Part shown: piece by piece, positions 1,445-19,607 of the stretch
Layout of the letters: each line of letters begins with the position of its first letter
Numbering within the stretch: the stretch's first letter is position 1
IMG/VR virus record: IMGVR_UViG_2728369592_000008
Direction: 5' to 3' (one strand)
Origin: a virus
Lineage: Duplodnaviria; Heunggongvirae; Uroviricota; Caudoviricetes
Length of the DNA stretch: 20,348 nucleotides
Program-made: the position numbers and the translations under genes
Notes under the pieces: generated by a model
Database searches by the model: none
Told to the model about the DNA's origin: nothing
Seen by the model: only the letters and a program-made list of their open reading frames with translations

Positions 1445-1460
1445 TTCAAACATCTCCCCA

Positions 1461-1548: not shown

Positions 1549-1609
1549 ACGGTCAGATGGGGGTACTTATGGGGGTATTTGCTGTTCGGTTTAGTGGAGG
1601 TACCCCCAA

Positions 1610-3456: not shown

Positions 3457-3887
3457 TGGAAAAGAAAAACCGCCCATTACAGGCGGCTAATTCAGATATT
3501 CGTGTATCTGATGTTACGCCCCTTACAAAATCCCTTCAAGCACCAAAGCGCACACCGAAAAAGCATCGTGCCAGAGTCTATATGCTGCGTACTGGTATAG
3601 AGGGATGGACAGAAAATGACATTCTTCGCTACTGCCGTCTGTCTTCTGGTCGTAACTATGCAACAGAGTTAGAACGCCAGCTTGGAATCACTCTGGAGCG
3701 TATCGACGAAAAGAATCCTGATGGTATCGGAACACACCTTCGCTACCGTTTCTCCTGCCGTGGTGATGTTCTGAAAGTGATCACTCATATTAACCATCTT
3801 GCGAACATAAATGATCACAACGGACTTTCTCAGCAGGAAATTGCCGACATTCTGAAACTCTACCCGGACGCGTTTAACGCCGCCTAA
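3456..3887 (+). CDS. Hypothetical protein (basic N-terminus); start overlaps the alpA stop
   Basis: 143 aa ORF, ATG overlapping the alpA TGA (translational coupling). No family recognised. Confidence 0.55.
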   Translation: MEKKNRPLQAANSDIRVSDVTPLTKSLQAPKRTPKKHRARVYMLRTGIEGWTENDILRYCRLSSGRNYATELERQLGITLERIDEKNPDGIGTHLRYRFSCRGDVLKVITHINHLANINDHNGLSQQEIADILKLYPDAFNAA

Positions 3888-3899
3888 CGGAGACTGAAA

Positions 3900-4733: not shown

Positions 4734-4908
4734 GCCAACAGGAACACCACAACCACAAAAACGCTACAAAGATGCCCACGGAGCACTCGTTACTGTCGAA
4801 AGCGTGTCTCACAACCGAGTGACGTTTTATCGCGACGGGTATCAATCGCCATGCGTACAACCGCTGGCGCGTTTCATGAAGGAGTTCGCGGAGGTTAACA
4901 AATGCTAA
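4726..4908 (+). CDS. Small hypothetical protein (60 aa)
   Basis: ATG at 4726 preceded by GGAGGTGG (4714-4721); it is the in-frame internal start of the listed 4639-4908 ORF and overlaps the end of the upstream gene. Confidence 0.45.
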   Translation: MSKPTGTPQPQKRYKDAHGALVTVESVSHNRVTFYRDGYQSPCVQPLARFMKEFAEVNKC

Positions 4909-5969: not shown

Positions 5970-6156
5970 CTCAATTAATACCCCTCGCCTTACGTCCGCA
6001 CTTCAATTAATCGAGCAAGCAGCGGCTGTCCTGGTTGCTGTCAGTCTTTCGGCTGAAGAAATGGACGCTGCTGATGTCGTGGATGCGATTAAAGCGTGCT
6101 CATCTTTGGTTAACGATGCCCGTGCCGAGCTGGTAATTCTTGGGGGTGAAAAATGA
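5962..6156 (+). CDS. Small hypothetical protein (64 aa)
   Basis: ATG 5962 preceded by a G-rich RBS, overlaps upstream stop; part of a chain of coupled small ORFs. Confidence 0.45.
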   Translation: MNNSINTPRLTSALQLIEQAAAVLVAVSLSAEEMDAADVVDAIKACSSLVNDARAELVILGGEK

Positions 6157-6416
6157 ATATCAACTTAATTTATCGTCATCCGTGTGAGCTGGAAATTGAA
6201 TCATTGCTGGGGCGTGAAGAGCCATATCCAGACACATTCACTCCCGCAGATTGCGCGACTGAACGGCTTACCAGAGCGCGCACAGGTCTGGTTCATGTGA
6301 TGAATGAGATTGTTCCCTCGGTGGGAGGGGAACAGGCGACAGTAATCAATAGCTGGCTACAAAAAGTTACCTCCCTGATAGATATCGGTTTAATCGATGT
6401 GGAGAGTGCGAAATGA
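6153..6416 (+). CDS. Small hypothetical protein (87 aa)
   Basis: ATGA start/stop overlap with the upstream ORF. Confidence 0.5.
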   Translation: MNINLIYRHPCELEIESLLGREEPYPDTFTPADCATERLTRARTGLVHVMNEIVPSVGGEQATVINSWLQKVTSLIDIGLIDVESAK

Positions 6417-6634
6417 CCAACATCCAGCTCATTGAAGCGCAATGTCGCATCGAACAGGTTCAGACTGTTTTAGGGTTCTGGCTTGAAGGGGCCAGCCCCA
6501 GCAACAGAGACAAGTTAATGATTGGCGCGGTTATGTCACTGCTTAATGGCGTACCAGAAGCTATTCAGGAAGCGGACGAATTGTTGGGCAAATATGAGTT
6601 ACAGAATCATTCAGGCGAGGCGAAACATGAATAA
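6413..6634 (+). CDS. Small hypothetical protein (73 aa)
   Basis: ATGA start/stop overlap with the upstream ORF. Confidence 0.5.
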   Translation: MTNIQLIEAQCRIEQVQTVLGFWLEGASPSNRDKLMIGAVMSLLNGVPEAIQEADELLGKYELQNHSGEAKHE

Positions 6635-7229
6635 TTTCTTAACTTTCCATGCAGAAGCAACGCCTGACGGCGTAAACATCATGTACCGCAGCAACGATGG
6701 CATGACAGAACGCGTTGAGGCCATCTCATATATTGATGCCGTAAATCGTCTGGATGCCGGGGATTATGACGATAAACCAGATGAAGGTATGTCAATACAT
6801 CTCGCTATTGCCGATGGCGGCAACCAGGGATATTTCGATTACACATCACAGCATAACGTCATTATGTGGAGATGGCTGATCGCAACAGTATTCATGCTGG
6901 AAATGAGAGAGGAAAACGGCACTGTCAGCATCATTGATGATACTGGCAATCCTTCCGAAGTGGCTGTTTATTCCAACGGCATCGTCGCCATGCCGCTGTA
7001 TCCAGTAGCAGAGCGCCTCGCTATGGCAAACAACATTGAGGGCGCGATGATAGAACGTTTTGGCATCGAGTCTGGCACAGAACGCGCCATCATTTTCTAC
7101 AGAGCCATGATGGATGTGGAACAAGGAGCACTGACTCCATTTGGTCGTGAAACGCTTGCTGAACTTCACAACAGCTTTATAGCTGAACTGAATGAAAACG
7201 GCATGCCAGCGGAACCAGTGACGCACTGA
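6627..7229 (+). CDS. Hypothetical protein (200 aa)
   Basis: In-frame ATG at 6627 overlapping the previous stop; the listed 6522 start would overlap the upstream gene by ~110 nt and is less likely. Confidence 0.5.
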   Translation: MNNFLTFHAEATPDGVNIMYRSNDGMTERVEAISYIDAVNRLDAGDYDDKPDEGMSIHLAIADGGNQGYFDYTSQHNVIMWRWLIATVFMLEMREENGTVSIIDDTGNPSEVAVYSNGIVAMPLYPVAERLAMANNIEGAMIERFGIESGTERAIIFYRAMMDVEQGALTPFGRETLAELHNSFIAELNENGMPAEPVTH

Positions 7230-7239
7230 GGATGGAGCC

Positions 7240-7581
7240 ATGATTACTAAAAATTTCCGACTGAATGCGCTGGCAAATAAGTATGCGTCGGCACTGTATA
7301 ACCACATTACCTCCACCAGCGGCGGGGACTATTTCATGGTTGATGCGGACGGCGAGGCCGTCCGTGTGGAAATCGTCAATGGAGTAAAAGGCGTTCGCAG
7401 CCTGATCGATAGCTACACACTGGCAGCCATGAAAGTGTTCTACCCGCAGTGGGAAACCGTGGGGATCGAGCTTCTTGAACGTTGCGTCACTAAGGACGGA
7501 TTGACTGACGTCGGGCGTGAGATATGGCAAAGCATGGTTAATGACATGGGCGCAACTGTAGCGGGAGGTTCTCATGCGTGA
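7240..7581 (+). CDS. Hypothetical protein (113 aa)
   Basis: ORF with GGATGGAG RBS upstream; co-oriented with neighbours. Confidence 0.5.
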   Translation: MITKNFRLNALANKYASALYNHITSTSGGDYFMVDADGEAVRVEIVNGVKGVRSLIDSYTLAAMKVFYPQWETVGIELLERCVTKDGLTDVGREIWQSMVNDMGATVAGGSHA

Positions 7582-7945
7582 AAATGCAGAAATGGCGCTT
7601 AGCTCCGCAATCGGAGAGCAGGTGGCAAAGATTGCTGGTGCTGTGTGGATTCATAACCTTCATTCTACTGGTGAAGAGAAAATGGTAATTCAGACGCCAG
7701 AGGGACGCACCATTACTACATCTCTGAAGCCGTCAGATGTTTGTGATCTGATTTGCGCATTCATGTACCCAGCAATGAGGACTGTCCACGGCGATAAGTG
7801 GAAACTTGCGACAACCGCTGAATTTGATATGTGGCTAAACAATGATGGCATGCTGACTGATTACGGAATAACCAAGTGGCAGATGCTGGTTAGCCATATC
7901 GCAAACGCTATAGACCACGTGGGGTACGGTGATGCGAAACATTGA
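7574..7945 (+). CDS. Hypothetical protein (123 aa)
   Basis: ORF with GGGAGG RBS; overlaps neighbours at both ends. Confidence 0.5.
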   Translation: MRENAEMALSSAIGEQVAKIAGAVWIHNLHSTGEEKMVIQTPEGRTITTSLKPSDVCDLICAFMYPAMRTVHGDKWKLATTAEFDMWLNNDGMLTDYGITKWQMLVSHIANAIDHVGYGDAKH

Positions 7946-10688
7946 TCTTATCCGTCAGGTTATCAGTGCGTCTGAAAACAACTGGCCTCATGTGCTGGGC
8001 TGCCTGAACATAAATGTCCCTGACTCTCCGCGCCGTCATGCTCCCTGCCCTGCATGTGGGGGCAAAGATCGATTCCGGTTCGATGACAACGGGCGCGGTA
8101 GCTTCATCTGTAATCAGTGCGGCGCTGGTGATGGGCTGGATTTAATTAAACGCGTAAATAACTGCGACACAACAGAGGCGGCGCTTCTTGCCGCTGATGT
8201 TCTGGGTATTGATTACCGGACAACGGAAACACCAGAAGCCACCAGCCAGAAACGGGAACAACTGGAAACCGAGCGCCAGCGACGCGAACAGGAGCGCCTG
8301 AAAAGGGCAGAGAAGGACGAACAACAAAGACGGGATACGTTTTCCCGTCAGTTTGATGACATGCGCAGAAAGGCTGTAAACGGCAAATCTGATTATCTGG
8401 TTGCGAAAGGGGTAGGTGATTTTACATTCCCCGTGTTGCCCGATGGATCTCTGTTGCTGGCGCTGGTGGATAAATCCGGCGCAGTAACAGCAGCACAGAC
8501 TATTACCTCACATGGTGAAAAAAGACTCCTGACAGGTTCAGCAAAGCGGGGGGCATATCACGCCATAAACGCACCAGAAACAACACAGAGCATCTTAATC
8601 GCAGAAGGTCTGGCAACGGCATTATCTGCCCATTTAATTCGTCCAGAGGCGCTGACAGTGGCGGCGATTGATGCCGGGAACCTGTTATATGTCGCCCAGG
8701 TACTGCGGGATAAATTTCCTTCAGCACAAATCATCATTGCTGCGGATAACGACCACAGCGAAGGAAGACAAAACACGGGGAGAATAGCAGCAGAAAAAGC
8801 AGCTTTATCTGTTTCTGGATGGGTGGCATTACCCCCGACAGATCACAAAGCAGACTGGAATGATTACCACCAAAAACACGGCATTAAATGCGCCACAGAA
8901 GCGTTCAATAAGTCAATGTACCAACCACAGGGTAATGGCGTGAAACAGGAGCCACAGACCATTGAGGGAAGCGATTTTAAGGTTATGGATACCGACCCAC
9001 TGAAACCAAGAATAGAAAGCCGCGAGGATGGTATTTATTGGGTATCTCCGAGAGCTGACAGCCAGAGTGGAGAAATCATCAATAACGAAAGCTGGTTATG
9101 TTCTCCGTTAAGCGTTATCGGTACTGGCAGAGACGATAAAGACCAGTATCTCATTCTTCGCTGGCTGTCGTTTGGTTCTGAAACGCCGACAACCGCTGCC
9201 ATTCCACTGGCTGATATTGGTGAACGTGAAGGATGGCGCACACTTAAAGCTGGTGGGGTAAATGTCACGACCAAAAGCAGCCTCAGAGCAATACTGGCAG
9301 ACTGGCTACAACGCAGTGGCTCTCGTGAATTGTGGCGTGTTGCTCATGCCACTGGCTGGCAATGCGGAGCGTACATCATGCCTGATGGGGAAATCATCGG
9401 AACACCTGAAAATCCTGTGCTGTTCAGCGGGAGAAGCTCAGCCGCAGCCGGATATACCGTCTCAGGGAGCGCGAAAAGCTGGCGTGATAACGTGGCGCGT
9501 CTGGCCTTTGGTAACTATTCAATGATGACCGGGATCGGCGCAGCACTGGCAGCGCCATTGATTGGGCTGGTGGGCGCTGACGGGTTCGGCATTCATTTCT
9601 ATGAGCAGTCGAGCGCAGGTAAGACCACCACGGCAAACGTGGCGAGCAGCTTATACGGCAACCCTGATTTACTGCGGCTGACGTGGTACGGAACCGCGCT
9701 GGGGCTGGCAAATGAGGCCGCCGCCCACAATGACGGACTAATGCCGCTTGATGAAGTTGGTCAGGGCGCTGATCCTGTCAGCGTTTCACAGTCTGCCTAT
9801 GCGTTATTTAACGGTGTAGGGAAACTGCAAGGCGCTAAAGATGGTGGAAACCGGGATCTAAAACGCTGGCGTACAGTGGCAATCAGCACCGGAGAAATGG
9901 ATTTAGAAACATTTATCGCTACTTCCGGGCGAAAAACCAAAGCCGGGCAACTGGTGCGACTGCTGAATATTCCGTTGAGTAAAGCAGTACGCTTTCACGA
10001 TTACCAGAACGGAAAACAGCACGCAGACGCACTGAAAGACGCTTACCAGCATCACCACGGCGCGTCCGGGCGTGAGTGGATTAAATGGCTGGCACACCAC
10101 CAGCAACAGGCTATTAAAACCGTTCGTGATTGCGAAAGCAGATGGAGAAGCCTGATCCCATCCGATTATGGTGAGCAGGTTCACCGTGTAGCCGCGCGAT
10201 TTGCCATTCTAGAGGCCGCATTGTTGTTAGGCGAGGTTGTAACAGGCTGGGATGCTCAGACATGCCGTGATGCGATACAGCACAGCTATAACGCATGGTT
10301 GCGCGAGTTCGGCACAGGTAACAAAGAGCATCAGCAGATTATTGAACAAACGGAGGCATTTCTTAATGCCTATGGGCTTAGCCGTTTTGCACCATTTCCA
10401 TACAGCCCGGCAGATTTGCCCATCAAAGATTTAGCCGGATACCGTCAGCGTGGAGAACATGACGAAAGCCCAATGATTTTCTACACATTCCCGGCCACAT
10501 TTGAAAAGGAGATCGCATGTGGTTTCAACGCAAAACAGTTTGCTGAAGTGTTGAAAAAAGCCGGGATGCTAACCCCACCAAACAGCGGTCGTGGATACCA
10601 AAGAAAATCACCACGTATTCAGGGACGACAAATAAACGTTTATGTACTCAATTACCAGCCAGGAGATTATAACTCATCTGAAGAATGA
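7932..10688 (+). CDS. Phage/satellite primase-helicase (zinc-ribbon + Toprim primase + P-loop NTPase)
   Basis: ~918 aa. Cys-rich zinc-binding motif PCPACGGKDRFRFDDNGRGSFICNQCG; Toprim-like acidic motifs (IAEGLATALS, IIIAADNDHSEGRQNTG); Walker A SSAGKTT near nt 9610. Architecture as in P4 alpha-like replication proteins. ATG 7932 preferred over the GTG at 7929. Confidence 0.85.
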   Translation: MRNIDLIRQVISASENNWPHVLGCLNINVPDSPRRHAPCPACGGKDRFRFDDNGRGSFICNQCGAGDGLDLIKRVNNCDTTEAALLAADVLGIDYRTTETPEATSQKREQLETERQRREQERLKRAEKDEQQRRDTFSRQFDDMRRKAVNGKSDYLVAKGVGDFTFPVLPDGSLLLALVDKSGAVTAAQTITSHGEKRLLTGSAKRGAYHAINAPETTQSILIAEGLATALSAHLIRPEALTVAAIDAGNLLYVAQVLRDKFPSAQIIIAADNDHSEGRQNTGRIAAEKAALSVSGWVALPPTDHKADWNDYHQKHGIKCATEAFNKSMYQPQGNGVKQEPQTIEGSDFKVMDTDPLKPRIESREDGIYWVSPRADSQSGEIINNESWLCSPLSVIGTGRDDKDQYLILRWLSFGSETPTTAAIPLADIGEREGWRTLKAGGVNVTTKSSLRAILADWLQRSGSRELWRVAHATGWQCGAYIMPDGEIIGTPENPVLFSGRSSAAAGYTVSGSAKSWRDNVARLAFGNYSMMTGIGAALAAPLIGLVGADGFGIHFYEQSSAGKTTTANVASSLYGNPDLLRLTWYGTALGLANEAAAHNDGLMPLDEVGQGADPVSVSQSAYALFNGVGKLQGAKDGGNRDLKRWRTVAISTGEMDLETFIATSGRKTKAGQLVRLLNIPLSKAVRFHDYQNGKQHADALKDAYQHHHGASGREWIKWLAHHQQQAIKTVRDCESRWRSLIPSDYGEQVHRVAARFAILEAALLLGEVVTGWDAQTCRDAIQHSYNAWLREFGTGNKEHQQIIEQTEAFLNAYGLSRFAPFPYSPADLPIKDLAGYRQRGEHDESPMIFYTFPATFEKEIACGFNAKQFAEVLKKAGMLTPPNSGRGYQRKSPRIQGRQINVYVLNYQPGDYNSSEE

Positions 10689-10710
10689 GCTTCTTCATGT
10701 GCGTAGAAAA

Positions 10711-10828
10711 GGTGTTGGTTCAGTTGGTTCAGTTGGTTCAATTTGTAAAGTGTATTGTTTTATAAGGATTTTATTCTTTTTATTGAACCAACACTGAACC
10801 AACAACACGGTATTTTGAACCAACACAA
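10711..10828 (+). repeat. Iteron cluster, putative origin of replication (three direct GTTGGTTCA repeats, AT-rich spacer, three inverted copies)
   Basis: GGTGTTGGTTCAGTTGGTTCAGTTGGTTCA at 10711-10740, AT-rich 10751-10781, then TTGAACCAACA-type repeats at 10782-10828; immediately downstream of the primase stop. Confidence 0.65.
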
Positions 10829-10874
10829 TGTGACTGAATTGATGCGCACAACACCTGGCTGGCATCAGAGAGTG

Positions 10875-10950
10875 TTTTACGAGACTTTCGTAAAATCCTG
10901 TGTACAAGGGCGTGACGTTTTTGAAAGTGAGCACTACGAAATTTTCGTAG
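10875..10950 (+). promoter_or_regulatory. Two palindromic sites sharing a TACGAAA/TTTCGTA half-site
   Basis: TTTTACGA-N5-TCGTAAAA at 10875-10895 and the perfect palindrome CTACGAAA-T-TTTCGTAG at 10934-10950. Confidence 0.4.
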
Positions 10951-11143
10951 TTCAAAAAACAGCCTCTGAGAAGTTGTTATGCCTGTTCAGCAAACCATCC
11001 GCATAGCTGATCGCGAATCAAATTACCAATGGAGCCAGAAGCAAGGGCAGAACTGAAAAGCGCCTGCCGTGAAGAGTAATGCGACACCATAAATATAGTT
11101 TTTAGAGTCCATAAAAAACCTGTCAAAACCTGACACACAGAAC

Positions 11144-11177
11144 GATGCCACCAGCTACTGAGCGGTGGCATTTTTTT
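11144..11177 (+). terminator. Rho-independent terminator closing the primase transcription unit
   Basis: Stem TGCCACC (11146-11152) / GGTGGCA (11164-11170) followed by TTTTTTT (11171-11177). Confidence 0.65.
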
Positions 11178-11273
11178 GTGCTATTTGTTTCATATTTTGC
11201 AATTACTATGATGAATATTGCGATTTGTGAAACTATAATAACTGTTGTTTTATACAGTTCTAAGGGGGGCGTT

Positions 11274-11435
11274 ATGGCTATTTCAGTAAAGCCGGTATTG
11301 ATAAGTGAGAAGCAAATGGAAGCGATAAAGAAAATTCAGGAAGAGCAGCGTAAAAAATCAGGAATTGGAGTAGCGCCAACTCTGCATGAAATTGCACGAG
11401 GGTTAATAGATAAGGCGCTGGCAGGCTGTATGTGA
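11274..11435 (+). CDS. Small hypothetical protein (53 aa), first gene of the cargo operon
   Basis: ATG 11274 preceded by AAGGGGGG; the listed longer ORF (from 11145) would read through the terminator and is rejected. Confidence 0.45.
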   Translation: MAISVKPVLISEKQMEAIKKIQEEQRKKSGIGVAPTLHEIARGLIDKALAGCM

Positions 11436-11451
11436 AAATGGATGGCATCGC

Positions 11452-11913
11452 ATGGAACTAAAATTTATTGATAACCCTGTGCGATTACAGGCCTTTCTTA
11501 ACGAGCCAGGCAATACCGAAAATATTGTTGAGCCGGGGCACACGTACTACATCAAGCCTGATGCGGTATATCTCGGCATCTACGAAGGATTGGTGCTGGC
11601 TGGCGTTCATGAAGTGCGTAACTTCTGGCATAGCATTGTTGAATGCCATGCGGTGTACGACCCCGGATTCCGTGGTGAATATGCACTGCAAGGGCATCGA
11701 TTATTCTGCAAATGGCTTCTCGAAAACTCACCATTCCTTAACAGCATTACCATGGTTCCTGACACCACCAAATACGGACGGGCAATTATCCGTTTGCTTG
11801 GCGCTACCCGTGTTGGTCACCTTGATGATGCTTATATCAGATGTGGTAAACCCGTCGGCGTAACGCTTTATCAGTTAACTCGGCAACAATATAAGGAATT
11901 CAGCGAATGTTAA
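11452..11913 (+). CDS. Hypothetical protein (153 aa); possibly a P22 gp14-like virion protein by position
   Basis: ORF directly upstream of, and overlapping, the next gene; the call is by position and size only. Confidence 0.5.
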   Translation: MELKFIDNPVRLQAFLNEPGNTENIVEPGHTYYIKPDAVYLGIYEGLVLAGVHEVRNFWHSIVECHAVYDPGFRGEYALQGHRLFCKWLLENSPFLNSITMVPDTTKYGRAIIRLLGATRVGHLDDAYIRCGKPVGVTLYQLTRQQYKEFSEC

Positions 11914-12584
11914 TTACCCACATAGCTCATAAACATCTCAATCGTGCCGTATACGAAAAAGGCGGTGATGGTGGTGCCTCTAAAGCTCAGGCGAAGGCCC
12001 AGCAGCAGGCAATTGATTTGCAGCGCGAGCAGTGGAATACGGTGATGAATAATCTCAAGCCGTATGCAGAAGTCGGATTGCCTGCTTTACAACAACTACA
12101 AGGACTGATGACTCTGGAAGGGCAGAATAAAGCCGCGAATGATTTCTTTGGTTCTGGTTTATATAAAACACAGGCAGATCAGGCCCGTTATCAGAACCTT
12201 GTCTCAGCAGAAGCTACCGGGGGGCTTGGCTCAACAGCTACCAGTAACCAGTTATCTTCCATTGCGCCCATGCTTTATAACAATTGGCTTAGTGGGCAAA
12301 TGCAAAATTATGGAAACCTGCTAAATGTCGGGATGAATGCGGCATCAGGGCAGGCAACAGCAGGGCAAAACTACGCCAATAATACCGGGCAACTCTTGCA
12401 GGGGCTTGGCGCTATTCGTGCAGGTCAGGCGCAGCAGCCATCCAGTCTTGCGCGTGGTATTGGTGGGGCGGCATCAGGCGCTTTAGCGGGTGCGCAACTT
12501 GGTTCCGTTGTTCCGGGTATAGGTAATGTCGCCGGGGCTATTGGTGGTGGGCTTATTGGTCTTGTTGGGGGGCTTGGATTCTAA
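11907..12584 (+). CDS. Gly/Gln-rich protein with C-terminal glycine-zipper hydrophobic tail; possibly P22 gp7-like ejection protein
   Basis: 225 aa; RBS AAGGAA; C-terminus GIGGAASGALAGAQLGSVVPGIGNVAGAIGGGLIGLVGGLGF; size and position match the first ejection protein of P22-like phages (from memory). Confidence 0.5.
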   Translation: MLITHIAHKHLNRAVYEKGGDGGASKAQAKAQQQAIDLQREQWNTVMNNLKPYAEVGLPALQQLQGLMTLEGQNKAANDFFGSGLYKTQADQARYQNLVSAEATGGLGSTATSNQLSSIAPMLYNNWLSGQMQNYGNLLNVGMNAASGQATAGQNYANNTGQLLQGLGAIRAGQAQQPSSLARGIGGAASGALAGAQLGSVVPGIGNVAGAIGGGLIGLVGGLGF

Positions 12585-14005
12585 TGGCGACATGGCAACT
12601 TGGCGGGCTGCCTAGCATGGCACCGCAAAATGATAATGCTCCTCGTTCTTCCGTTCCTCAGCCTGTGCAGTATCAGCAGCAGCCAAACGTAGGTTTAATG
12701 GCGCTACAGGGGCTAAGAGGCGTTGCTGAGATTAATCAGCAGGCACGTCAACAACAGCGTAAAGCAGAGTTTCAGAAAGCATATGCCGGGGCTTTTGAGT
12801 CTGGAGACAGAAACAAAATGCGCAGTCTTATTTCTGAGTATCCAGAAGAATTTGAAAGCGTTCAGAAAGGGATGGGCTTTATTGATGACGACCAGAGAAA
12901 TTCTATTGGTCATCTTGCGACTAGTGCTCAAATCGCATCTTCGCTCGGAACTGGGGCATTTGGAAAATTCATAGCAGATAACGAAGATGAAATGCGTCGC
13001 TTGGGAATTTCTCCTGAGTCTGTTGCCGAAATGCATGTTAATGATCCACAGGGATTCCAGCGGCTTGCTGGTAGTATGGCACTGTTTTCTCTCGGTCATG
13101 AGAAGTATTTCGATATCAAAGATCAAATGGAAGGTCGGGATATTGAGCGTGGCAAGTTGGCAGAAACAATCCGCAGCAATCAGGCTGGCGAAGCACTTCA
13201 GGCGAGAGGGCAGGATATTAGCCGAGCAAATGCGTTAACGTCAGCATATGCACCAACAGCAGCAATGCAGAATTACAATCAGTACGCTCAAATGTTAAAG
13301 GAGGATCCAGAGGGGGCGGCGGCATTTGCGGCAGCGGCTGGAATTAATACAAACGCCAAAAAATTAATGAGTGTTAGAGAAAACGATGATGGCACTGTCA
13401 CAAAATACTACACAGACGGAAGTGAAGAGCAGGGAAAACTAAACCAGCCAATATCTGGAGATGGGTTTCGTCCAATAGCTTTGCCAACAGCCCAAAAGAT
13501 CATGGAAAAGTCGCCAGAAGGGGCTAAAAAAGCTGCTGGATTTGCATACAGGGTTAGGGATGCTCTTGATTCAATAGATACACTGAAAGACCAGCTTAGC
13601 CCACAGCGAGTGGCGATCATTAATAATGCTTTGGGTAATGGGACGCTGGCTAACTTAACGCTCAGCCCAACAGAGCAGCAATACGTTGTTAATGCTAATG
13701 ACGCAATAATGGCAATACTCCGTCAGGAAACAGGGGCAGCTATCGTACCTGCTGAAATGTCAAAATATTATCAAATGTATTTCCCTCAGCCTGGCGACTC
13801 CACAAAAACCATTGATACCAAGCGCCGGAAGATGGAAAACCAGTTCAATTCGCTGAAAGCTGCTTCTGGTCGAGCTTATGATGCTTTGCGGGTTATTTCA
13901 GCAGTTGACAGAGGAACTTCTTCTTCGTCGCAGACATTGCCGCAATCTGAGCAGGTATCACAGCCAGCAGCCAGCAGTAACTTTTCTTCACTATGGGGTG
14001 ATTAA
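12584..14005 (+). CDS. Hypothetical protein (473 aa); possibly P22 gp20-like DNA-transfer/ejection protein
   Basis: ATG overlaps upstream stop (TAATGG); size and order consistent with the middle ejection protein of P22-like phages. Confidence 0.5.
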   Translation: MATWQLGGLPSMAPQNDNAPRSSVPQPVQYQQQPNVGLMALQGLRGVAEINQQARQQQRKAEFQKAYAGAFESGDRNKMRSLISEYPEEFESVQKGMGFIDDDQRNSIGHLATSAQIASSLGTGAFGKFIADNEDEMRRLGISPESVAEMHVNDPQGFQRLAGSMALFSLGHEKYFDIKDQMEGRDIERGKLAETIRSNQAGEALQARGQDISRANALTSAYAPTAAMQNYNQYAQMLKEDPEGAAAFAAAAGINTNAKKLMSVRENDDGTVTKYYTDGSEEQGKLNQPISGDGFRPIALPTAQKIMEKSPEGAKKAAGFAYRVRDALDSIDTLKDQLSPQRVAIINNALGNGTLANLTLSPTEQQYVVNANDAIMAILRQETGAAIVPAEMSKYYQMYFPQPGDSTKTIDTKRRKMENQFNSLKAASGRAYDALRVISAVDRGTSSSSQTLPQSEQVSQPAASSNFSSLWGD

Positions 14006-16110
14006 TGGCTAAAGCATGGAAAGATGTTATCGCCTCTCCACAGTATCAGGCGTTAGCACCAGAACAAAAAGCGCAGGCTCAGGAGCAATACTTCAATGAA
14101 GTCGTTGCCCCGCAAGCCGGAGAAAGTGTAGAGCAGGCTAAGCAGGCTTTTTATGCTGCCTATCCACTACCATCAACGAATGAAATAGACCGAGCCCAAT
14201 CAGCAACTCAAAATATTCAACATACATCATCTGATAATTCTCTTGCGTCAGGGTATGCAAAGTTAGCTACTCAGCAAAGAGAGGGGCTTGAGCGTTCAGC
14301 AGAACAGGGAGCCAGCCTTGGGGCTGCGATGCGCGATGCTATAACAGGCGAAAGCCGAATGACTCCAGAGATGGAGAGACTGCAAAATGTCGACCTTGCC
14401 CCAGAGTTAACCTCACTCAGCATGGATGCTCTAAAAGCTCGATGGTCTCAACTTTTCGGCTCTGACGCATCTCAGGAAAAGATTCTTCAGAGCATGGGAG
14501 CGAAATTAAGGCAGGATGAGAAGGGTAACACTATCGTTTCCCTGCCATCCGGTGATTATGCTCTGAACAAGCCGGGTTTATCGCCGCAAGACGTGGCATC
14601 GTTTCTGGCTAATGCGCTGGCGTTTACACCAGCGGGCAGGGCCGGAACGGTGCTGGGGGCCATAGGGAAATCAGCAGCTACAGATTTAGCACTACAGGGA
14701 GCCACCAGCCTCGCTGGTGGAGAAGATATTGATCCGTTACAAACGGTAATTTCTGCTGGCATTGGTGGTATTGGTAAGGGGCTGGAAAATACAGCGAGTG
14801 CGGTTTCGAGGGCTGTTCGTGGTGATATGTCGCCTGAAGCAAAGGCTGCTGTCGACTTTGCATCGGAAAGAAATCTGCCGTTAATGACCAGTGACATGCT
14901 GAAAGATAAAACCTTTATGCAGAGTCAGGCTCAGACATTAGGCGAAAGAGTTCCTTTTTTTGGAACCGGTAAGAATCGGCTGAATCAACAACAAGCACGA
15001 GAAAATTTAGTCAGAACATTTAGCGATGGTCTGGGTGGCATTTCTGATAAACAGCTTTATGAATCTGCGACTAAAGGGCAACAAAAATTCATTGAGGCAG
15101 CAGGAAAGCGATATAACCGCATAATTGACGCTATGGGGGATACCCCTGTCGATCTCTCAAACACGGTAAAAGCTATCGACAATCAGATTGCTGTGTTAAG
15201 CCGCCCGGGTAAATCTCAGGATAGAGCCGCGGTAAAAGTCTTGCAGCAATTTAAAGACGATATCACCAGCGGACCAAATGACCTGCGTCTGGCGAGGGAA
15301 AACAGAACCGATCTTCGAAAGCGGTTTATGGCGTCATCTGACACTGTTGATAAAGATACGCTCCAGAAAGCCAGCGATATTATCTACAAGGCATATACGG
15401 CGGATATGAAAAAAGCCGTAGCCAAAAATCTTGGAGCAGACGAAGCCATTAATATGGCAAGGGTTGATCGCTCATGGTCTAAATTCAATGACATGATGGG
15501 AAGAACGCGCGTTCAAAAGGCAATAGCCAGCGGCAAGGCCACGCCTGAGGATGTAACAAAACTCGTTTTTAGCCAAAGCCCATCAGAACGTTCTCAGCTT
15601 TACAGGCTTCTGGATGACAATGGTAGGCAAAACGCACGAGCAGCCATAGTTCAGAATGCTGTAGATAAGGCGACTGATCCGTCTGGAAATATCAGTGTTG
15701 AGAAGTTTATTAATGCGTTACACCGGAACAGGAAGCAATCAGCAACTTTCTTTAAAGGCGTACATGGAAAGGAACTGGACGGCGTTATTAAATACCTCAA
15801 CGATACAAGACACGCGGCAAAAGCGAACGTTCAAAACTTAAATGGTCAGCAGCTTTATGGATTGTTAGTTGGTGGTGGCATCATAAACGCAGCAGTATTA
15901 GCGGGGATGCTAAAAACGGCTGCGTTTGTTGTTCCTGCTGCTGGTGCCGTAGGCGGAGCCGCGAAGGCATACGAAAGCCCTGTTATACGAAATGCCTTGT
16001 TACGTTTGGCAAATACGCCAAAAGGTAGCACAGCATATGACAGAGCGATCAGTACGGTCACACAATCGCTCACCAGAGTCGCACAGGCATCACAAAAAGA
16101 AGCTCAATAA
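14005..16110 (+). CDS. Hypothetical protein (701 aa) with C-terminal hydrophobic hairpin; possibly P22 gp16-like DNA-transfer/ejection protein
   Basis: ATG overlaps upstream stop; Ala/Gln/Lys-rich; hydrophobic stretch LLVGGGIINAAVLAGMLKTAAFVVPAAGAVGGAA near the C-terminus. Confidence 0.5.
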   Translation: MAKAWKDVIASPQYQALAPEQKAQAQEQYFNEVVAPQAGESVEQAKQAFYAAYPLPSTNEIDRAQSATQNIQHTSSDNSLASGYAKLATQQREGLERSAEQGASLGAAMRDAITGESRMTPEMERLQNVDLAPELTSLSMDALKARWSQLFGSDASQEKILQSMGAKLRQDEKGNTIVSLPSGDYALNKPGLSPQDVASFLANALAFTPAGRAGTVLGAIGKSAATDLALQGATSLAGGEDIDPLQTVISAGIGGIGKGLENTASAVSRAVRGDMSPEAKAAVDFASERNLPLMTSDMLKDKTFMQSQAQTLGERVPFFGTGKNRLNQQQARENLVRTFSDGLGGISDKQLYESATKGQQKFIEAAGKRYNRIIDAMGDTPVDLSNTVKAIDNQIAVLSRPGKSQDRAAVKVLQQFKDDITSGPNDLRLARENRTDLRKRFMASSDTVDKDTLQKASDIIYKAYTADMKKAVAKNLGADEAINMARVDRSWSKFNDMMGRTRVQKAIASGKATPEDVTKLVFSQSPSERSQLYRLLDDNGRQNARAAIVQNAVDKATDPSGNISVEKFINALHRNRKQSATFFKGVHGKELDGVIKYLNDTRHAAKANVQNLNGQQLYGLLVGGGIINAAVLAGMLKTAAFVVPAAGAVGGAAKAYESPVIRNALLRLANTPKGSTAYDRAISTVTQSLTRVAQASQKEAQ

Positions 16111-16128
16111 CTGGTAGCCATGGATGGC

Positions 16129-16743
16129 TTAGATATCTCTGCTGTCTCCATTAGGAAATAAAAGATAATATGGATTTGCCTTTCTTGCTCTCCTTGCTTC
16201 ACCTGGATACCTGTTAGTCAGTAGTTTGCATAATGAGCAGAGAACAACACTCAAGAAAATTCCGAATGAGAAGATCAATATCTCACCAAAAATCAATGGC
16301 GATATTAAATTTTCAGGATTTAATGATAAGTCAATGTTAAAAACATATTGAGCAATACCAGTAAGTATCAATAATATAATCCCTATGGAATACATTGCTG
16401 TTTCCCAAACATCAGACAGTCTATTTTTGAATTGTTCGCTGGAGTAGTAGTTTGTTATAAAGTCAGAAAAATCACTCTCATATGCATCATCTTTAGGTGA
16501 TGTTAGAAATCCTCTGTCTCTCCATACCTTCTCCCAATTAGTCGATTCTTTTTTTAAGGAAAAATAAATATGTATTGCCAAAAGGATAGCCAAAATTGGT
16601 GTTAGCTCTAAAAAATAGAATGTTATGGAATAAATAATACTGCCATGTTCAAACTCATCTGGGACTATCATGTATGCACAAAAATAAATTGAAAAGTACA
16701 CCATGCAGATAGTTAGCAATTCTTTAGTATCTTTTCTGCTCAC
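16129..16743 (-). CDS. AT-rich polytopic inner-membrane protein (about four predicted TM helices); candidate superinfection-exclusion or defence effector
   Basis: 204 aa, GTG start with AAGGGGG RBS; hydrophobic segments at roughly aa 9-27, 36-61, 116-135, 147-176; visibly lower GC than flanking genes; convergent with the upstream operon. Confidence 0.55.
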   Translation of the reverse strand: MSRKDTKELLTICMVYFSIYFCAYMIVPDEFEHGSIIYSITFYFLELTPILAILLAIHIYFSLKKESTNWEKVWRDRGFLTSPKDDAYESDFSDFITNYYSSEQFKNRLSDVWETAMYSIGIILLILTGIAQYVFNIDLSLNPENLISPLIFGEILIFSFGIFLSVVLCSLCKLLTNRYPGEARRARKANPYYLLFPNGDSRDI

Positions 16744-16960
16744 ACCAACCCCCTTTAGCGTTGTTTAGAATGGCAATCATCATATATCCAAGACATGGCA
16801 TTTGGTACATAGCTTGGGTCGGGATTTCAAATCCGATCCCCGTTGATGGGGCCGTTACAGTACGCGCATATCCGCTTTATGTGAAACAGGAAGATTTTTC
16901 TGATATCACTGCCACAGCAAAACACCAATTTCGTGACCAGTACGCGCGCGAGGGGTATCA

Positions 16961-16979
16961 GTTGCAAAAATTTTGCAAC
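16961..16979. promoter_or_regulatory. Perfect 19 bp palindrome GTTGCAAAA-A-TTTTGCAAC flanked by GACCAGTACGC direct repeats
   Basis: Palindrome at 16961-16979; GACCAGTACGC at 16934-16944 and 16987-16997; related CAGTACGCGC motifs near 16858 and 17225. Confidence 0.45.
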
Positions 16980-17612
16980 TACGTCCGACCAGTACGCACA
17001 CGATGGCGGGGGATACCATGAAACTGTTCTCTACACGAGACAGAGTGGTGGTGATGTGTTGATTATCGGCGTATATGCGCACAGGACGCGCTATGACGAT
17101 GTTTTATGCGGGTACACCAATCACATGTATCTGATGTGATAAATCGTGTTACATGACATCTCATGTTGTGCTGGTGGTTATCACGACGTTCTGAATCTGG
17201 CCTTTGCCTGATATTTTGCGACAAGTACGCGCGCGTAGCATCGAAATTATCGGATGGCGTATGCTGCTGGCAATATGAAGACCGATAGTATTAACCGAAA
17301 AGCGATTAAGGAGTGCCAACTTTTCAGTAGAGAAACTAGCCAGCATAGGAAAATGTAGAAATTACCCAATTAATAGGTAAAAGTTATTGACACAGCCTGT
17401 AGTGGATAACGATATGAATAAAAACCACATATAGTGGTTTTTCGTGAGTGATGATAGTATCTATGTTAGTTTCCTAAGTAACTGTGCATTGACATGTGGA
17501 TAACTTCGGATAGAGTTACAGGCAACCGAGCCCGATCCTCTGTTTCTCCGCCGCCGATTTCAGGCATGTGAGTTTCACGGTCGGGCCTTTTATTATCTTT
17601 TGTTTCGCCACT

Positions 17613-18590
17613 ATGATTGCCGCAAAGCCTCATAAGGACTATCACGAATTGCTAGGATTGCTACTTGAACGTGGCATGATTATCAATGATCGAAATCGTG
17701 CGATACGTAAGCTGTCGCAGGTTGGATATTATCGATTGTCAGGTTTTTGGTACCCATCAAGAATTATTGCGACAACAGATAAAGGTCTTTCGTACAGAAC
17801 AGACCGATTTCTTGCTGGTACCAGTTTCGAGAAGACGTACGATCTATATCTTTTTGACAAAAAACTGCGTCTTTTGATGATTGATGCTATCGAAAGAATA
17901 GAGATTCATGTTCGTTCAGTCATCGCGCATGAGGTTGGTCGCAATGATCCACTTGCCTACATGTCATCAAAATACATTAATCCAAAATTCTCATCTGCCT
18001 TCGAGCATTGGGTGTATAAGCAAAAAGTAAAATTAGACGAAAGCAGAGATGACTGTATTGAATGGCATCGAAGCCAAGGCAAGGAGATTCCATTTTGGGT
18101 GGCGGTGGAGACCTGGGATTTTGGTCAGATGTCTAAATATTATGCGATGCTTAATGGTCATATGCAGGGGAAAATTATACGTCGTTTTGGCATTGATAAT
18201 AAGCAGACATTTGCAAAATGGTTGAAGTGCCTTAATCTCATAAGGAATCGTTGCGCTCACCATTCCAGAATATGGAATAGAAAGCATCCCCGAGTTCCAG
18301 TACCGGATAATGAATACTTTGACGGACTTAATCTCCATCCAGAGAGTTGCGAGAGGATTTTTAGCGCGATCTGTATTATCTGGTACTTAGTTAAACGACT
18401 TGGTCCGGGATCAACATGGCTTCGGCAAATTGCAGACCTTATTGACTCTAAACCAAATGTTCCCGGATGTGGATATGATTCAATGGGTTTACCTGCTAAA
18501 GGATTCCCACGAGAGAGATTCTCTCAGGACTTAGGTTTTGTTATCGCCGACAACGACCCTGTAGCTGAAGGGCGGAAAGGGAGCGATTGA
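17613..18590 (+). CDS. Abi_2-family abortive infection protein (AbiD/AbiF-like)
   Basis: Signature stretches match the family: KPHKDYHELLGLLLERGMIINDRNRAIRKLSQVGYYRLSGFWYP, LYLFDKKLRLLMIDAIERIEIHVRSVIAHEV, LIRNRCAHHSRIWNR. ATG 17613 preferred; the listed 17568 start adds 15 hydrophobic residues. Confidence 0.8.
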   Translation: MIAAKPHKDYHELLGLLLERGMIINDRNRAIRKLSQVGYYRLSGFWYPSRIIATTDKGLSYRTDRFLAGTSFEKTYDLYLFDKKLRLLMIDAIERIEIHVRSVIAHEVGRNDPLAYMSSKYINPKFSSAFEHWVYKQKVKLDESRDDCIEWHRSQGKEIPFWVAVETWDFGQMSKYYAMLNGHMQGKIIRRFGIDNKQTFAKWLKCLNLIRNRCAHHSRIWNRKHPRVPVPDNEYFDGLNLHPESCERIFSAICIIWYLVKRLGPGSTWLRQIADLIDSKPNVPGCGYDSMGLPAKGFPRERFSQDLGFVIADNDPVAEGRKGSD

Positions 18591-18619
18591 GCGATAAATA
18601 TCATTTATACACTGATCAA

Positions 18620-19060
18620 TTACTGAAGCAGCGTATTGATTCTTTTAATATTGTTACCCTGACGCTTCCACGCGCTGTAAATGTCTTTATCCCACGCTTT
18701 ACCAGCTTTTGTTTGGTAGCCTGCTTCATTGAGCCGTTCCGCTATCACACGCCCATTATCAAATCCCTGTCGGATGGTATCGGCAATGATCTTTATAACT
18801 GCCGTTTCGTTATATGGCTTTGGTGGGATGTTCGGCTTTCCGGCAATAAGCGACGCAGCGGCTTTTTCCATGCGCTCCACCAGCCCAAGCATTCGTGAAT
18901 CAATAGACTTTTCCGGCTGTCCCAGCTTCATGCGAATCGCATCAACAAGCCAGGAGGTTTTATCCCCTCCAGAAGCGAGAACAGACCGATTAAACTCATC
19001 CTGCAATTCAGATGGGATGCGGAACGCGACCAGATTAGATTTGCTCATTGCAAAGACCAT
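18620..19060 (-). CDS. Ribbon-helix-helix DNA-binding protein with C-terminal recombinase-type (catalytic-domain-less) DNA-binding module
   Basis: 146 aa; N-terminal SNLVAFRIPSELQDEFNRSVLASGGDKTSWLVDAIRMKL fits an RHH fold; C-terminal IADTIRQGFDNGRVIAERLNEAGYQTKAGKAWDKDIYSAWKRQ resembles the DNA-binding 'recombinase' domain of large serine recombinases. No clear RBS; start could be 19048. Confidence 0.55.
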   Translation of the reverse strand: MVFAMSKSNLVAFRIPSELQDEFNRSVLASGGDKTSWLVDAIRMKLGQPEKSIDSRMLGLVERMEKAAASLIAGKPNIPPKPYNETAVIKIIADTIRQGFDNGRVIAERLNEAGYQTKAGKAWDKDIYSAWKRQGNNIKRINTLLQ

Positions 19061-19077
19061 ATCAGTGAGTAATATCC

Positions 19078-19109
19078 ATACAGTATACCACTGTATAACA
19101 CTGTTATAC
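19078..19109. promoter_or_regulatory. Overlapping palindromes upstream of the RHH gene (candidate autoregulatory operators)
   Basis: ATACAGT-ATACC-ACTGTAT (19078-19096) and GTATAACA-C-TGTTATAC (19093-19109). Confidence 0.45.
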
Positions 19110-19157
19110 GCTCAAATATCAGCCAGAAAATAACGGACCAATCACAAAGCTATCGCT

Positions 19158-19286
19158 GTGTTGTTGGTTCAGAGCTGGGCTGTGTTGGTTCAAAATGAGT
19201 TGATGTTGGTTCAATATTTCAGAAAAAACACAATAAAAACAACGATCTTTACAAATTGAACCAACTGAACCAACTGAACCAACACC
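19158..19286 (-). repeat. Second iteron cluster, inverted copy of the ori cluster (crr-like cis replication site?)
   Basis: 19247-19286 is the exact reverse complement of the 40-mer at 10711-10750; three further TGTTGGTTCA copies at 19162-19215 across an AT-rich spacer. Confidence 0.6.
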
Positions 19287-19319
19287 TTTTTGCTTATCTA
19301 TATAATCTGAGAGGCAGAA

Positions 19320-19607
19320 ATGATAAGGGACAGGAAAGCTGAAGAACTGGAGTCAAAAGGGCTATACCGGAGAGCTGCCGCACGATGGGCAGAAGTCATG
19401 ATGCTGGCAGATGGCGATAAAGAACGTGAACATGCAGCAAACAGACGCTCTGAATGTATCCGTAAGGCGGCACGCCCACCAGCAACTACAGACAGATTCG
19501 GAGATTTAAGACAGGCAGTTAAGCGGACTCATTCGGCTCTTGGTATGGATGAGGAAGCGAGAGGGTATTTCAGGCGTTATCGCGATAAAGATTGCCAGAG
19601 ACAGTAA
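19320..19607 (+). CDS. PerC-family transcriptional activator-like protein
   Basis: 95 aa; N-terminal RKAEELESKGLYRRAAARWAEVM resembles PerC/Pch family activators carried on prophages; RBS GAGAGG upstream. Confidence 0.55.
   Translation: MIRDRKAEELESKGLYRRAAARWAEVMMLADGDKEREHAANRRSECIRKAARPPATTDRFGDLRQAVKRTHSALGMDEEARGYFRRYRDKDCQRQ

Follow-up and report, generated by a model that had tools for sequence, protein, structure and literature searches.

The long gap between two divergently oriented genes at 16744-17567 of the window (the whole 20,348-nucleotide stretch analyzed) is probably a patchwork of two mosaic modules, and it lies in a thrW-integrated island at the place that the "ant moron"/immI region has in P22-like phages. 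Module 1 (16740-17305) would be island backbone, consisting of the start region of the leftward gene and the decaying remnant of a small gene. Module 2 (17306-17612) would have arrived with the AbiD cassette and would supply the abiD promoter and a leader with a hairpin plus U tract. The gap can now be annotated with a SieA-like start region, a relic open reading frame (ORF), and an AbiD cassette preceded by a predicted promoter and a leader of its own. The repeats that had drawn attention to the region carry little biological weight in themselves: their enrichment is real, but population data point to mutational features of a decaying gene rather than a control device. A preliminary description had offered three explanations for the gap, i.e., a multi-operator control region, a small structured RNA, or the remnant of another element, and the last fits best, as most of the gap appears to be the frameshifted relic of a small plus-strand gene in a mosaic prophage backbone.

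Genomic context and comparison with P22

The gap and its flanks comprise the following main features.

16129-16743, minus strand: gene for a SieA-like superinfection-exclusion membrane protein of 204 amino acids (aa), GTG start at 16743-16741
16740-17305: conserved backbone block, with a core at 16740-17244 that extends to 17280-17305 in most alleles
17306-17612, plus strand: 5' region of the AbiD cassette
17613-18590, plus strand: AbiD (Abi_2) abortive-infection gene (Pfam Abi_2, E = 2e-52; PADLOC AbiD, E = 7e-58), cargo of the hotspot

RefSeq annotates no gene at 16744-17567 and places the Abi start at ATG 17613, where the N terminus of a second allele also aligns. This start is more likely than GTG 17568, and the gap is then ∼869 bp long. 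Both flanks had been suspected of a role in defense, which the matches of AbiD and the SieA homologue corroborate. The leftward protein matches phrog_7745 ("SieA-like"; E = 4.4e-4) and is 29% identical to P22 SieA over 108 aa (BLASTP, E = 8e-8), including the C-terminal RYPGEA. Its gene follows the gene 16 homologue at a distance of 18 bp and in the other orientation, matching the arrangement of P22 sieA.

The island occupies a tRNA-Thr gene (thrW) of Escherichia coli, with the tRNA-Thr next to the integrase, and the gap directly follows P22-type genes 14-7-20-16 and the leftward SieA homologue. ORFs at 11452-16110 match PHROGs 651, 598, 917, and 770, corresponding to genes 14, 7, 20, and 16, and gp16 is 67% identical to that of Lederbergvirus N7. 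The layout parallels those of P22 (reference record NC_002371.2) and phage N7. The region between genes 16 and 9 of P22-like phages is in rapid flux and contains frame-broken genes (Villafane et al. 2008, PMC2629481).

Several features liken the island to P22-like immI. First, the homologue of gene 16 (ejection protein), part of a P22-like late cluster, immediately precedes the region. Second, the leftward sieA homologue starts at a GTG after ..TAA(A)GG(G)AGG(G)TTGGT, with predicted promoter activity. Third, a plus-strand ORF of ∼120 codons starts ∼30 bp from this GTG. Fourth, further leftward genes face a divergent plus-strand regulator, and finally, the region is strongly mosaic and includes genes with broken frames. 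In contrast to P22, the island region yielded no homologue of mnt, arc, ant, or sar, a PerC-family gene stands where arc and ant would be, no tailspike (gene 9) is annotated after PerC in loci L001, L003, and L004, and the plus-strand ORF and the P22 ORF share no sequence similarity. The island is also incomplete as a P22-like prophage, its virion module being limited to genes 14, 7, 20, and 16. A search of the region for sar or any other Rfam family gave no match. The 146-aa protein at the mnt position was considered as an Mnt-like ribbon-helix-helix (RHH) protein, an identity that was not confirmed by any Arc/RHH Pfam or PDB match. Because of this and the missing tailspike, the immI analogy is partial.

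The host island is a more interesting lead than the repeats: it carries an integrase, P1-type immunity RNAs, and a primase with iterons, but of a P22-like phage only the genes for ejection proteins. A literature search for islands with P22-type ejection genes found none.

The backbone block and its plus-strand ORF

Of 5426 complete E. coli genomes, 545 carry the block at 95 to 100% identity, in all cases on the chromosome. The copy number per genome has a median of one and a maximum of three, and the context is the same each time, never a plasmid. A phage origin was rejected, as blastn of the block against 50,697 phage records and tblastn with two neighboring small proteins both returned nothing. 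The junctions are discrete (left, 16740, 16816, and 16827; right, 17244, 17280, 17300/17305, and 17542), and every left type pairs with several right types. The block is more divergent than gp16 and sieA and less so than third positions of the RHH-position gene; recombination confounds this comparison with the flanking genes, which gives no clear verdict on selection, purifying selection included. Persistence of 16816-17244 is not explained by sieA expression, since E-type loci retain this segment without any leftward gene.

Within the block, the following leftward signals and ORF were recognized; all promoters are consensus matches, i.e., predictions, and shuffled sequences are expected to contain just as many.

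16741-16830, minus strand: translation-initiation region of the leftward gene and probable promoter, with GTG at 16743-16741 and Shine-Dalgarno (SD) sequence GGGGG at 16753-16749
16784-16779, minus strand: candidate -10 element TATGAT (prediction only)
16830-16802, minus strand: candidate promoter TTGAAA-17-TACCAA (prediction only)
17273-17246, minus strand: candidate sigma-70 promoter TTGCCA-16-GATAAT, predicted start near 17240
16770-17139, plus strand: frameshifted relic of an orphan ORF of 105 to 123 codons, split into 16770-17021 and 16933-17139

The left 80 bp would provide the translation start, and probably the promoter, of the leftward exclusion gene, with exclusion or membrane genes being swapped exactly at the GTG. 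Four types of leftward gene (A, that of the window, B, C, and D) share this one GTG at the junction, making it a clean case of cassette exchange at a conserved start codon with a single SD sequence (GGGAGGG in other alleles). The 25 nucleotides preceding the GTG share homology with the start region of P22 sieA, CTAAGGAGGTTGGTGTG, and P22 PsieA is annotated 31 to 61 nucleotides upstream of the P22 sieA GTG. The longest invariant run among 26 alleles, 60 bp at 16761-16820 (P = 0.006), lies in the same part of the block. Neither of the two candidate leftward promoters in the block is strictly conserved; that at 17273-17246 is present in alleles R2 to R6, with variable hexamers in XDL, and is absent from R1, where co-oriented genes sit directly upstream.

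The gap had been described as long and lacking a convincing ORF. RefSeq agrees in annotating no gene, but the ORF fragments at 16761-17021 and 16933-17139 are pieces of a single 123-codon ORF. Among 47 related loci, 19 retain it intact, namely, XDL (L003 6029-6400, RefSeq WP_001444474.1) and 18 others, and 28 have a truncated form; the ORF appears to be under no selection at present. In the window it is broken by the loss of one base in an A run (16966-16970) and one in a G run (17008-17012). A small plus-strand gene may once have been expressed head-to-head with sieA, like the phrog_1365 gene of P22, and now be decaying. Codon usage and positional analogy are the main arguments for such a coding origin. 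The codon-usage log-odds of the ORF (0.08 to 0.10) compare with 0.14 ± 0.085 for true frames and are reached by none of 1050 out-of-frame windows and none of 36 intergenic control frames. They also lie above 1999 of 2000 dinucleotide shuffles (z = 3.1 to 3.5), while the other five frames score negative. In P22, an ORF of phrog_1365 (E = 1e-39) next to sieA matches the relic in position, strand, and size, with no sequence similarity between them.

A doubtful but reasonable alternative is that the ORF is a chance open frame and that the block beyond the sieA start is functionless DNA, kept by recent ancestry and as a recombination bridge between swappable modules. The pairing of each left type with several right types is consistent with this, as is divergence of the block equal to or above that of adjacent genes. 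The ORF has no recognizable SD sequence and no Pfam or PHROG match, and a word-indexed search plus a full phmmer search of 1.8 billion representative proteins retrieved only same-locus fragments. An AF2 single-sequence model of the 105-aa form was uninformative (pLDDT of 37), polymorphisms fall 13/13/12 by codon position with no bias even within intact-ORF alleles, and shuffled sequences contain a stop-free run of ≥126 codons in 2.5% of cases. Chance does not readily account, however, for exactly this frame falling in the coding range and outscoring the out-of-frame, intergenic, and shuffled controls, or for a genuine P22 gene of equal size and strand at the same distance from the sieA start. 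A decaying gene remains the preferred reading, although it would be an orphan relic at best: descent from a known protein family was rejected given the lack of homology outside the locus and of Pfam or PHROG matches. Coding on the minus strand was likewise dismissed, as all three antisense frames score as noncoding; a 53-aa minus-strand ORF has a substitution pattern of 9/7/7 (hand count).

Repeats, palindromes, and possible functions of the block

The sequence motifs of the block are listed below.

16858, 16938, 16990, 17082, and 17223, plus strand: five copies of CAGTACGCGC with ≤1 mismatch, spanning 16858-17232
16864-16875 and 17069-17080: inverted pair, 92% complementary
16935-16945 and 16987-16997: 11-bp direct repeats, GACCAGTACGC
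16935-16986: 52-bp unit between the GACCAGTACGC repeats, containing the palindrome and missing in some alleles
16961-16979: palindrome GTTGCAAAAATTTTGCAAC, extending to 21 bp (AGTTGCAAAAATTTTGCAACT) at 16960-16980
∼17226-17237: 12-bp palindrome TACGCGCGCGTA

As sequence features, the elements of the preliminary description are present. The perfect 19-bp palindrome is even 21 bp long, direct repeats flank it, the core motif recurs, including near 16858 and 17225, the 12-bp palindrome overlaps the latter copy, and the inverted pair was recovered. The motif is enriched above chance, with seven matches (≤1 mismatch) in the whole 20-kb window versus 1.17 expected, a number reached in 0 of 100 shuffles; five of these lie inside the gap in a span of 375 bp, all on the plus strand. 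The copies belong to a ∼23-nucleotide repeat (16928-16950 and 17213-17235) and to longer tracts that, as we read the sequence, alternate purines and pyrimidines.

The central segment containing the palindrome and repeats is the most polymorphic part of the block, with 24% of columns variable versus 8 to 13% in the flanks. Ten of the 69 variable columns fall inside CAGTACGCGC copies, which are therefore conserved no better than the remainder. The palindrome center is A5T4 in only 8 of 47 loci; in the other 39 it is A6T4, A4T6 (the reverse complement of the A6T4 form), A5GT4, or deleted. Exactly the 52-bp unit is absent from L005 to L007 and from proteins P0003 and P0004.

Quasi-palindromes and direct repeats are mutational hotspots through template switching and slippage. 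The block shows similar behavior: the palindrome center flips from AA to TT, alleles differ by ±1 in A, T, and G runs, and the 52-bp deletion lies precisely between the 11-bp direct repeats. This allele spectrum suggests that the palindrome, the direct repeats, and the CAGTACGCGC/(RY)n tracts belong to the interior of the relic and are hotspots of slippage and template switching rather than binding sites.

Operator function is distinctly unlikely. Under such a reading, the CAGTACGCGC sites and palindromes would bind a regulator, e.g., the 146-aa protein or PerC, that controls the SieA-like gene and/or abiD; five same-strand copies in 375 bp, far beyond chance, a perfect 21-bp palindrome, a 12-bp palindrome, and a location between divergent genes speak for it. 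Operators should be better conserved than their surroundings and lie at promoters, but these copies and the palindrome occupy the most variable segment, away from predicted promoters. The palindrome center differs in 39 of 47 loci, natural alleles have lost the palindrome and one repeat, and spacings of 80, 52, 92, and 141 bp have no helical or tandem regularity. No copy occurs near the predicted abiD promoters or at 19061-19319 by the candidate regulators. Moreover, the motif-bearing block is present in 545 genomes and the Abi cassette in only 129, so that the motifs cannot be dedicated Abi operators. Of the proposed multi-operator region, only the ends retain a regulatory aspect, i.e., the left 80 bp, with the SD sequence, GTG, and probable promoter, and the right 300 bp, with the predicted AbiD promoter and leader.

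It is unlikely that the block functions as RNA, either as a leftward leader of ∼500 nucleotides ahead of the SieA-like gene or as a small RNA of its own, with a structure that regulates expression. The promoter-like site at 17273-17246 would start transcripts at the right edge of the block, R1 alleles carry the block within a string of leftward genes, and the palindrome forms a stable local hairpin (fold z of -2.3). Nevertheless, the suggested structured RNA fared poorly: none of 150 predicted consensus pairs has a compensatory change (covariation term, -0.55), and whole-block fold z scores are -0.64 for the minus strand and -1.17 for the plus strand. No Rfam 15 family matches the block at gathering thresholds or at E values up to 10, and no intrinsic terminator is predicted. 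Indels and the 52-bp deletion are tolerated, the block persists in E-type loci, which have no leftward gene, and complementarity to the island C4 and isrK RNAs is limited to a single 9-mer, which is at chance level; such pairing was rejected. A tRNA-like or att remnant, prompted by the hairpin TCGGGATTTCAAATCCGA, was also rejected; its 20-mer matched three genome contigs (an Armatimonadetes metagenome-assembled genome and two Echinicola species), all unrelated, with no match over a tRNA.

A very improbable possibility is that the block is a transcriptional collision zone, where rightward late read-through from the ejection-gene operon meets leftward transcription of the exclusion gene and the cruciform-prone palindrome and the five Z-DNA-prone tracts act as supercoiling-sensitive barriers. 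These barriers would then determine how far the SieA-like gene is expressed in the lysogen relative to genes further right, comparable to the effect on read-through to the tailspike gene suggested for the P22 ant moron (PMC2629481).

A function at the DNA level, with the block serving as replication-origin iterons, a site-specific recombination site for cassettes, or a fragment of a repetitive mobile element, is most unlikely. Direct repeats of ∼20 to 23 nucleotides surround an A/T-rich palindrome, the island encodes a TOPRIM/DUF927 primase, and the mosaic junctions are discrete. However, a textbook iteron cluster with a different motif, GTTGGTTCA (three copies in tandem and three inverted), lies right after the primase gene at 10712-10826, the repeats of the block are irregularly spaced, and the junctions do not coincide with motif copies. 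The block has no terminal inverted repeats, and its low copy number, constant context, and absence from plasmids and phage records also argue against this function. The concern that the motifs are fragments of a known repetitive element gained no support from the single median copy in the same context. The terminal inverted repeats and dispersed copies of an insertion sequence (IS) or MITE are absent, and the block is itself an IS target in one genome, where an insertion with an 8-bp duplication splits it.

The AbiD cassette and the cargo site

Homology with other backbone alleles ends at 17305. The AbiD module beyond this point is found in 129 genomes, always whole and ahead of two different Abi_2 alleles. 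Its 5' region contains the following on the plus strand.

17387-17392: TTGACA
17402 and 17496: GTGGATAAC
17420-17442: hairpin (fold z of -2.2)
17489-17516: promoter-like TTGACA-16-TAGAGT (consensus prediction)
17530-17586: leader hairpin, followed by a U-rich tract at 17587-17605

Rousset and colleagues are said to have described, in 2022, P2/P4 hotspots in which defense-gene cargo lies between conserved anchors of prophages and satellites. The island resembles these in having a fixed site, between 17305 and the stop codon of the 146-aa gene, with alternative cargoes: two AbiD alleles, a metalloprotease-like pair, an AlpA-type HTH gene, and a small membrane protein. Unlike in those hotspots, one anchor is not a conserved core gene but noncoding or relic DNA, and the island type differs. 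The block marks a defense-cargo hotspot in ∼10% of complete E. coli genomes.

Transcripts from the cassette's own predicted promoter would include the leader hairpin, which may attenuate abiD expression. The leader stem is GCCCGAUC/GGUCGGGC in the window and GCCCGGCC/GGCCGGGC in the second Abi_2 allele.

Genomic setting of the gap

The gap, a spacer at 16744-17567 between a leftward SieA-like gene and a rightward AbiD gene, is a further instance of a known region type: the mosaic moron/immunity region that follows gene 16 in P22-like elements. Its parts would be a conserved start region shared by interchangeable exclusion genes, an orphan gene in decay, and the promoter-leader belonging to an inserted AbiD cassette.

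The window comes from the E. coli chromosome and contains tRNA-Thr (thrW), the attachment site used by P22-type phages (PMC2629481), followed by an integrase. The ORFs at 11452-16110 are homologous to P22 genes 14, 7, 20, and 16 (among sequenced phages, the closest is Lederbergvirus N7, with gp16 67% identical). Directly after gene 16, a leftward gene encodes a 204-aa membrane protein that matches phrog_7745 and, judged by sequence similarity, is a SieA homologue (29% identity to P22 SieA over 108 residues, E 8e-8, C-terminal RYPGEA included). In P22, gene 16 is followed by sieA (leftward, with its own promoter), ~400 bp, orf59a and mnt (both leftward), and then arc, ant, and gene 9, and phage N7 has a similar string of leftward genes facing arc and ant. 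Unlike in P22, a leftward gene faces a PerC-family gene in the window:

18620-19060, minus strand: 146-aa protein in the position of mnt; its N-terminus resembles a ribbon-helix-helix motif by eye, with no confirming match in Pfam, PDB, or NCBIfam

By this gene order, the gap corresponds in position to the "ant moron"/immI region, which is documented as changing faster than any other part of P22-like late regions and includes genes that have been truncated or frameshifted (PMC2629481).

The surrounding thrW island (1369-19607) comprises the integrase, an AntA/AntB gene, a TOPRIM/DUF927 primase, the sieA homologue, a cargo hotspot, and the PerC-family gene. Of the P22-like virion module it carries genes 14, 7, 20, and 16 only; the window has no capsid, portal, terminase, or tailspike genes. 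The layout recurs in other strains (also in loci L003, from strain XDL, and L004) and looks like a satellite-like element carrying its own ejection proteins, of which a literature search found no published description. In E. coli O26 RM10386 (L001), ~3 kb without annotated feature (23128-26089) separates the island from another block; this block has a capsid gene and an integrase in reversed orientation and may be a tandem second element. Rfam also gave strong matches to isrK (67 bits) and C4 antisense RNA (79.5 bits), immunity I RNAs of P1/P7 type, at 5283-5360 and 5423-5510. Because both lie inside ORF 4902-5969, the RefSeq annotation of this ORF as an "ash family protein" may be wrong or overlapping.

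Two modules and a shared start region

In a blastn search of 5426 complete E. coli genomes, the left part of the gap was found in 545 (median one copy, all chromosomal, 95-100% identity), of which only 127-128 hold most of the gap. Junction mapping in 70-odd loci from genomes, viral contigs, and metagenomes showed that homology ends at few discrete points: 16740, 16816, and 16827 on the left and 17244, 17280, 17300/17305, and 17542 on the right, unless it continues into Abi. In non-Abi alleles, diverged backbone homology goes on past 17305, where the window changes to unrelated sequence; 16740-17305 (the block) is therefore island backbone and 17306 onward the Abi cassette. The 5' module of the cassette (17306-17542) is whole in 129 genomes, upstream of two different Abi_2 alleles; as alternative cargo, this site can hold a metalloprotease-like pair, an AlpA-type HTH gene, or the gene of a 73-aa membrane protein. 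Right of the block, a small plus-strand ORF (MKTDSINRK..., 17275-17358), a candidate small gene, starts within the backbone extension and has a different continuation in every right-hand allele (compared in L022, L036, and L003); XDL-type alleles differ from L022 in this region by an 11-bp deletion between GGCAAG repeats.

The left junction coincides exactly with a GTG (16743-16741) that is the start of at least four leftward gene types: the SieA-like gene of the window, two diverged small membrane proteins, and a signal-peptide protein of phrog_2651. Their Shine-Dalgarno sequence lies inside the block (GGGGG in the window, GGGAGGG in other alleles), and ~25 nt through the GTG (CTAAAGGGGGTTGGTGTG) share homology with the start region of P22 sieA (CTAAGGAGGTTGGTGTG), although the proteins are only 29% identical. 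In a comparison of 26 distinct alleles, one invariant run is by far longer than any other, at 60 bp (16761-16820; P = 0.006 under random placement of 69 variable columns), and what is missing from alleles with a left junction at 16816 or 16827 is exactly the exclusion gene and the 75-bp start stretch. The annotated PsieA promoter of P22 lies 31-61 nt upstream of sieA's start codon, and the stretch matching this position contains the following candidates:

16784-16779, minus strand: candidate -10 TATGAT, from our own reading
same stretch, minus strand: predicted promoter pair TTGAAA-17-TACCAA

These and the other promoters in the gap are predictions, promoter consensus matches in the region being as numerous as expected from shuffling. 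In loci sharing the left flank of the window, the block diverges by 1.4-3.4% versus 0-0.6% for gp16 and sieA, and it is less diverged than third codon positions of the 146-aa gene; such comparisons are unreliable because the alleles recombine, and any conclusion about selection is limited to the invariant left end.

Repeats and a probable relic ORF within the block

The preliminary description of the gap as gene free and rich in palindromes and a recurring motif is correct and statistically real. RefSeq has no feature there, the 19-bp palindrome at 16961-16979 is present and extends to 21 bp (16960-16980), direct repeats GACCAGTACGC occur at 16935 and 16987, and an inverted pair lies at 16864-16875 and 17069-17080. 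The motif CAGTACGCGC has five plus-strand copies (≤1 mismatch) at 16858, 16938, 16990, 17082, and 17223; across the whole 20-kb window there are 7 matches versus 1.17 expected, a number reached in 0 of 100 shuffles.

Two plus-strand ORF fragments (16761-17021 and 16933-17139) are pieces of one ORF whose intact, 123-codon form is found in O111:H- 11128 and in strain XDL, with a RefSeq annotation in the latter; compared with this form, one A is missing from the palindrome A run of the window and one G from its run at 17008-17012. Among the 47 loci covering the whole block, the ORF has 123 codons in 16, 105 codons in 3 (without the 52-bp unit 16935-16986), and is truncated to 37-97 codons in 28. 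Codon-usage log-odds, trained on the window's own genes with stop codons ignored and one gene left out at a time, gave 0.08-0.10 for the ORF, compared with 0.14 ± 0.085 for true frames and -0.18 ± 0.09 for wrong frames. This score was reached by 0 of 1050 wrong-frame windows, 0 of 36 intergenic frames, and 1 of 2000 dinucleotide shuffles (z 3.1-3.5), and the five other frames scored as noncoding. P22 has a plus-strand ORF at the same place, 31 bp from the sieA GTG (27 bp for the window ORF), dissimilar in sequence:

NC_002371.2 13861-14226 (2862-3227 in the fetched P22 locus, L079), plus strand: 121-codon ORF, unannotated in RefSeq, full-length phrog_1365 member (E 1.4e-39)

A real gene thus occupies that position in P22, presumably the one that the literature names hkcC. 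The annotated PsieA of P22 overlaps its first codons. Present function of the window ORF is argued against by substitutions spread evenly over codon positions 1/2/3 (13/13/12), absence of a Shine-Dalgarno sequence, no homologues beyond the locus among 5.8 billion clustered or 1.8 billion representative proteins, no Pfam or PHROG match, a poor AF2 model (pLDDT 37), and an open frame of a length found in 2.5% of shuffles. With moderate confidence, we regard the ORF as a gene relic.

The palindrome and repeats are located in the central segment of this ORF (16931-17040), where 24% of columns are variable versus 8% and 13% in its two flanks. The palindrome has its perfect A5T4 centre in only 8 of the 47 loci; A6T4 and A4T6, which are reverse complements, are the common alleles, further variants contain a G or are shorter by one base, and in one allele group the palindrome and one direct repeat are cleanly deleted between 11-bp repeats. 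The motif copies belong, by reading of the sequence, to alternating purine-pyrimidine tracts and a ~23-nt repeat, and are no better conserved than the rest, since 10 of the 69 variable columns fall inside them. The proposal of a multi-operator control array is consequently not supported: such variation is characteristic of hotspots for slippage and template switching in unconstrained DNA rather than of binding sites. The block also tolerates disruption, as one genome has an IS insertion inside it with an 8-bp duplication. The element has inverted ends GTAAGCGT... and duplicates CACAATGG (window 16999-17006), and was seen at L014 ~9244 and L027 ~484, both from IMG/VR source genome 2529292726.

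The suggestion of a small structured RNA fared no better. Rfam gave no match on the block even at E up to 10, fold z-scores of the 501-nt block were -0.64 (minus strand) and -1.17 (plus strand), RNAalifold on 26 alleles found 0 of 150 pairs compensatory, no terminator was predicted in the block region, and complementarity to the island's C4 and isrK RNAs was not above chance. A long leftward leader across the block is possible, without structural support, from a predicted site missing only from R1 alleles (one right-hand type), where co-oriented genes sit directly upstream:

17273-17246, minus strand: promoter-like TTGCCA-16-GATAAT, from which transcription would begin at the right edge of the block

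A replication origin in the block is argued against by a separate iteron-like cluster directly after the primase gene, with a motif unlike that of the block, which is probably the origin of the island:

10712-10826: GTTGGTTCA, three tandem copies with a 9-bp period
40-90 bp beyond this array: TGAACCAAC, three copies in inverted orientation

Predicted control region of the AbiD cassette

The rightward gene is identified as AbiD by Pfam (E 2e-52) and PADLOC (E 7e-58). ATG 17613 is the more likely start than GTG 17568, making the gap ~869 bp long. Upstream of it are:

17489-17516, plus strand: predicted promoter TTGACA-16-TAGAGT, the best match of the region
17387, plus strand: second TTGACA
17402-17410 and 17496-17504: two copies of GTGGATAAC, 94 bp apart, each adjoining a TTGACA hexamer
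17420-17442: A/U-flanked hairpin (z -2.2)
17530-17537 paired with 17579-17586: stem in the ~90-nt leader, followed by a U-rich tract (to 17605)

The second GTGGATAAC copy, TGTGGATAA, is what we take to be a perfect DnaA-box complement (TTATCCACA), a likeness that may be coincidence or mark a regulator site of the cassette. The leader stem reads GCCCGAUC/GGUCGGGC in the window versus GCCCGGCC/GGCCGGGC in the second Abi allele; pairing is kept through changes on both sides, and the loops of the two alleles are unrelated. Across these two alleles, the hairpin and U-rich tract are at most suggestive of a transcription attenuator.
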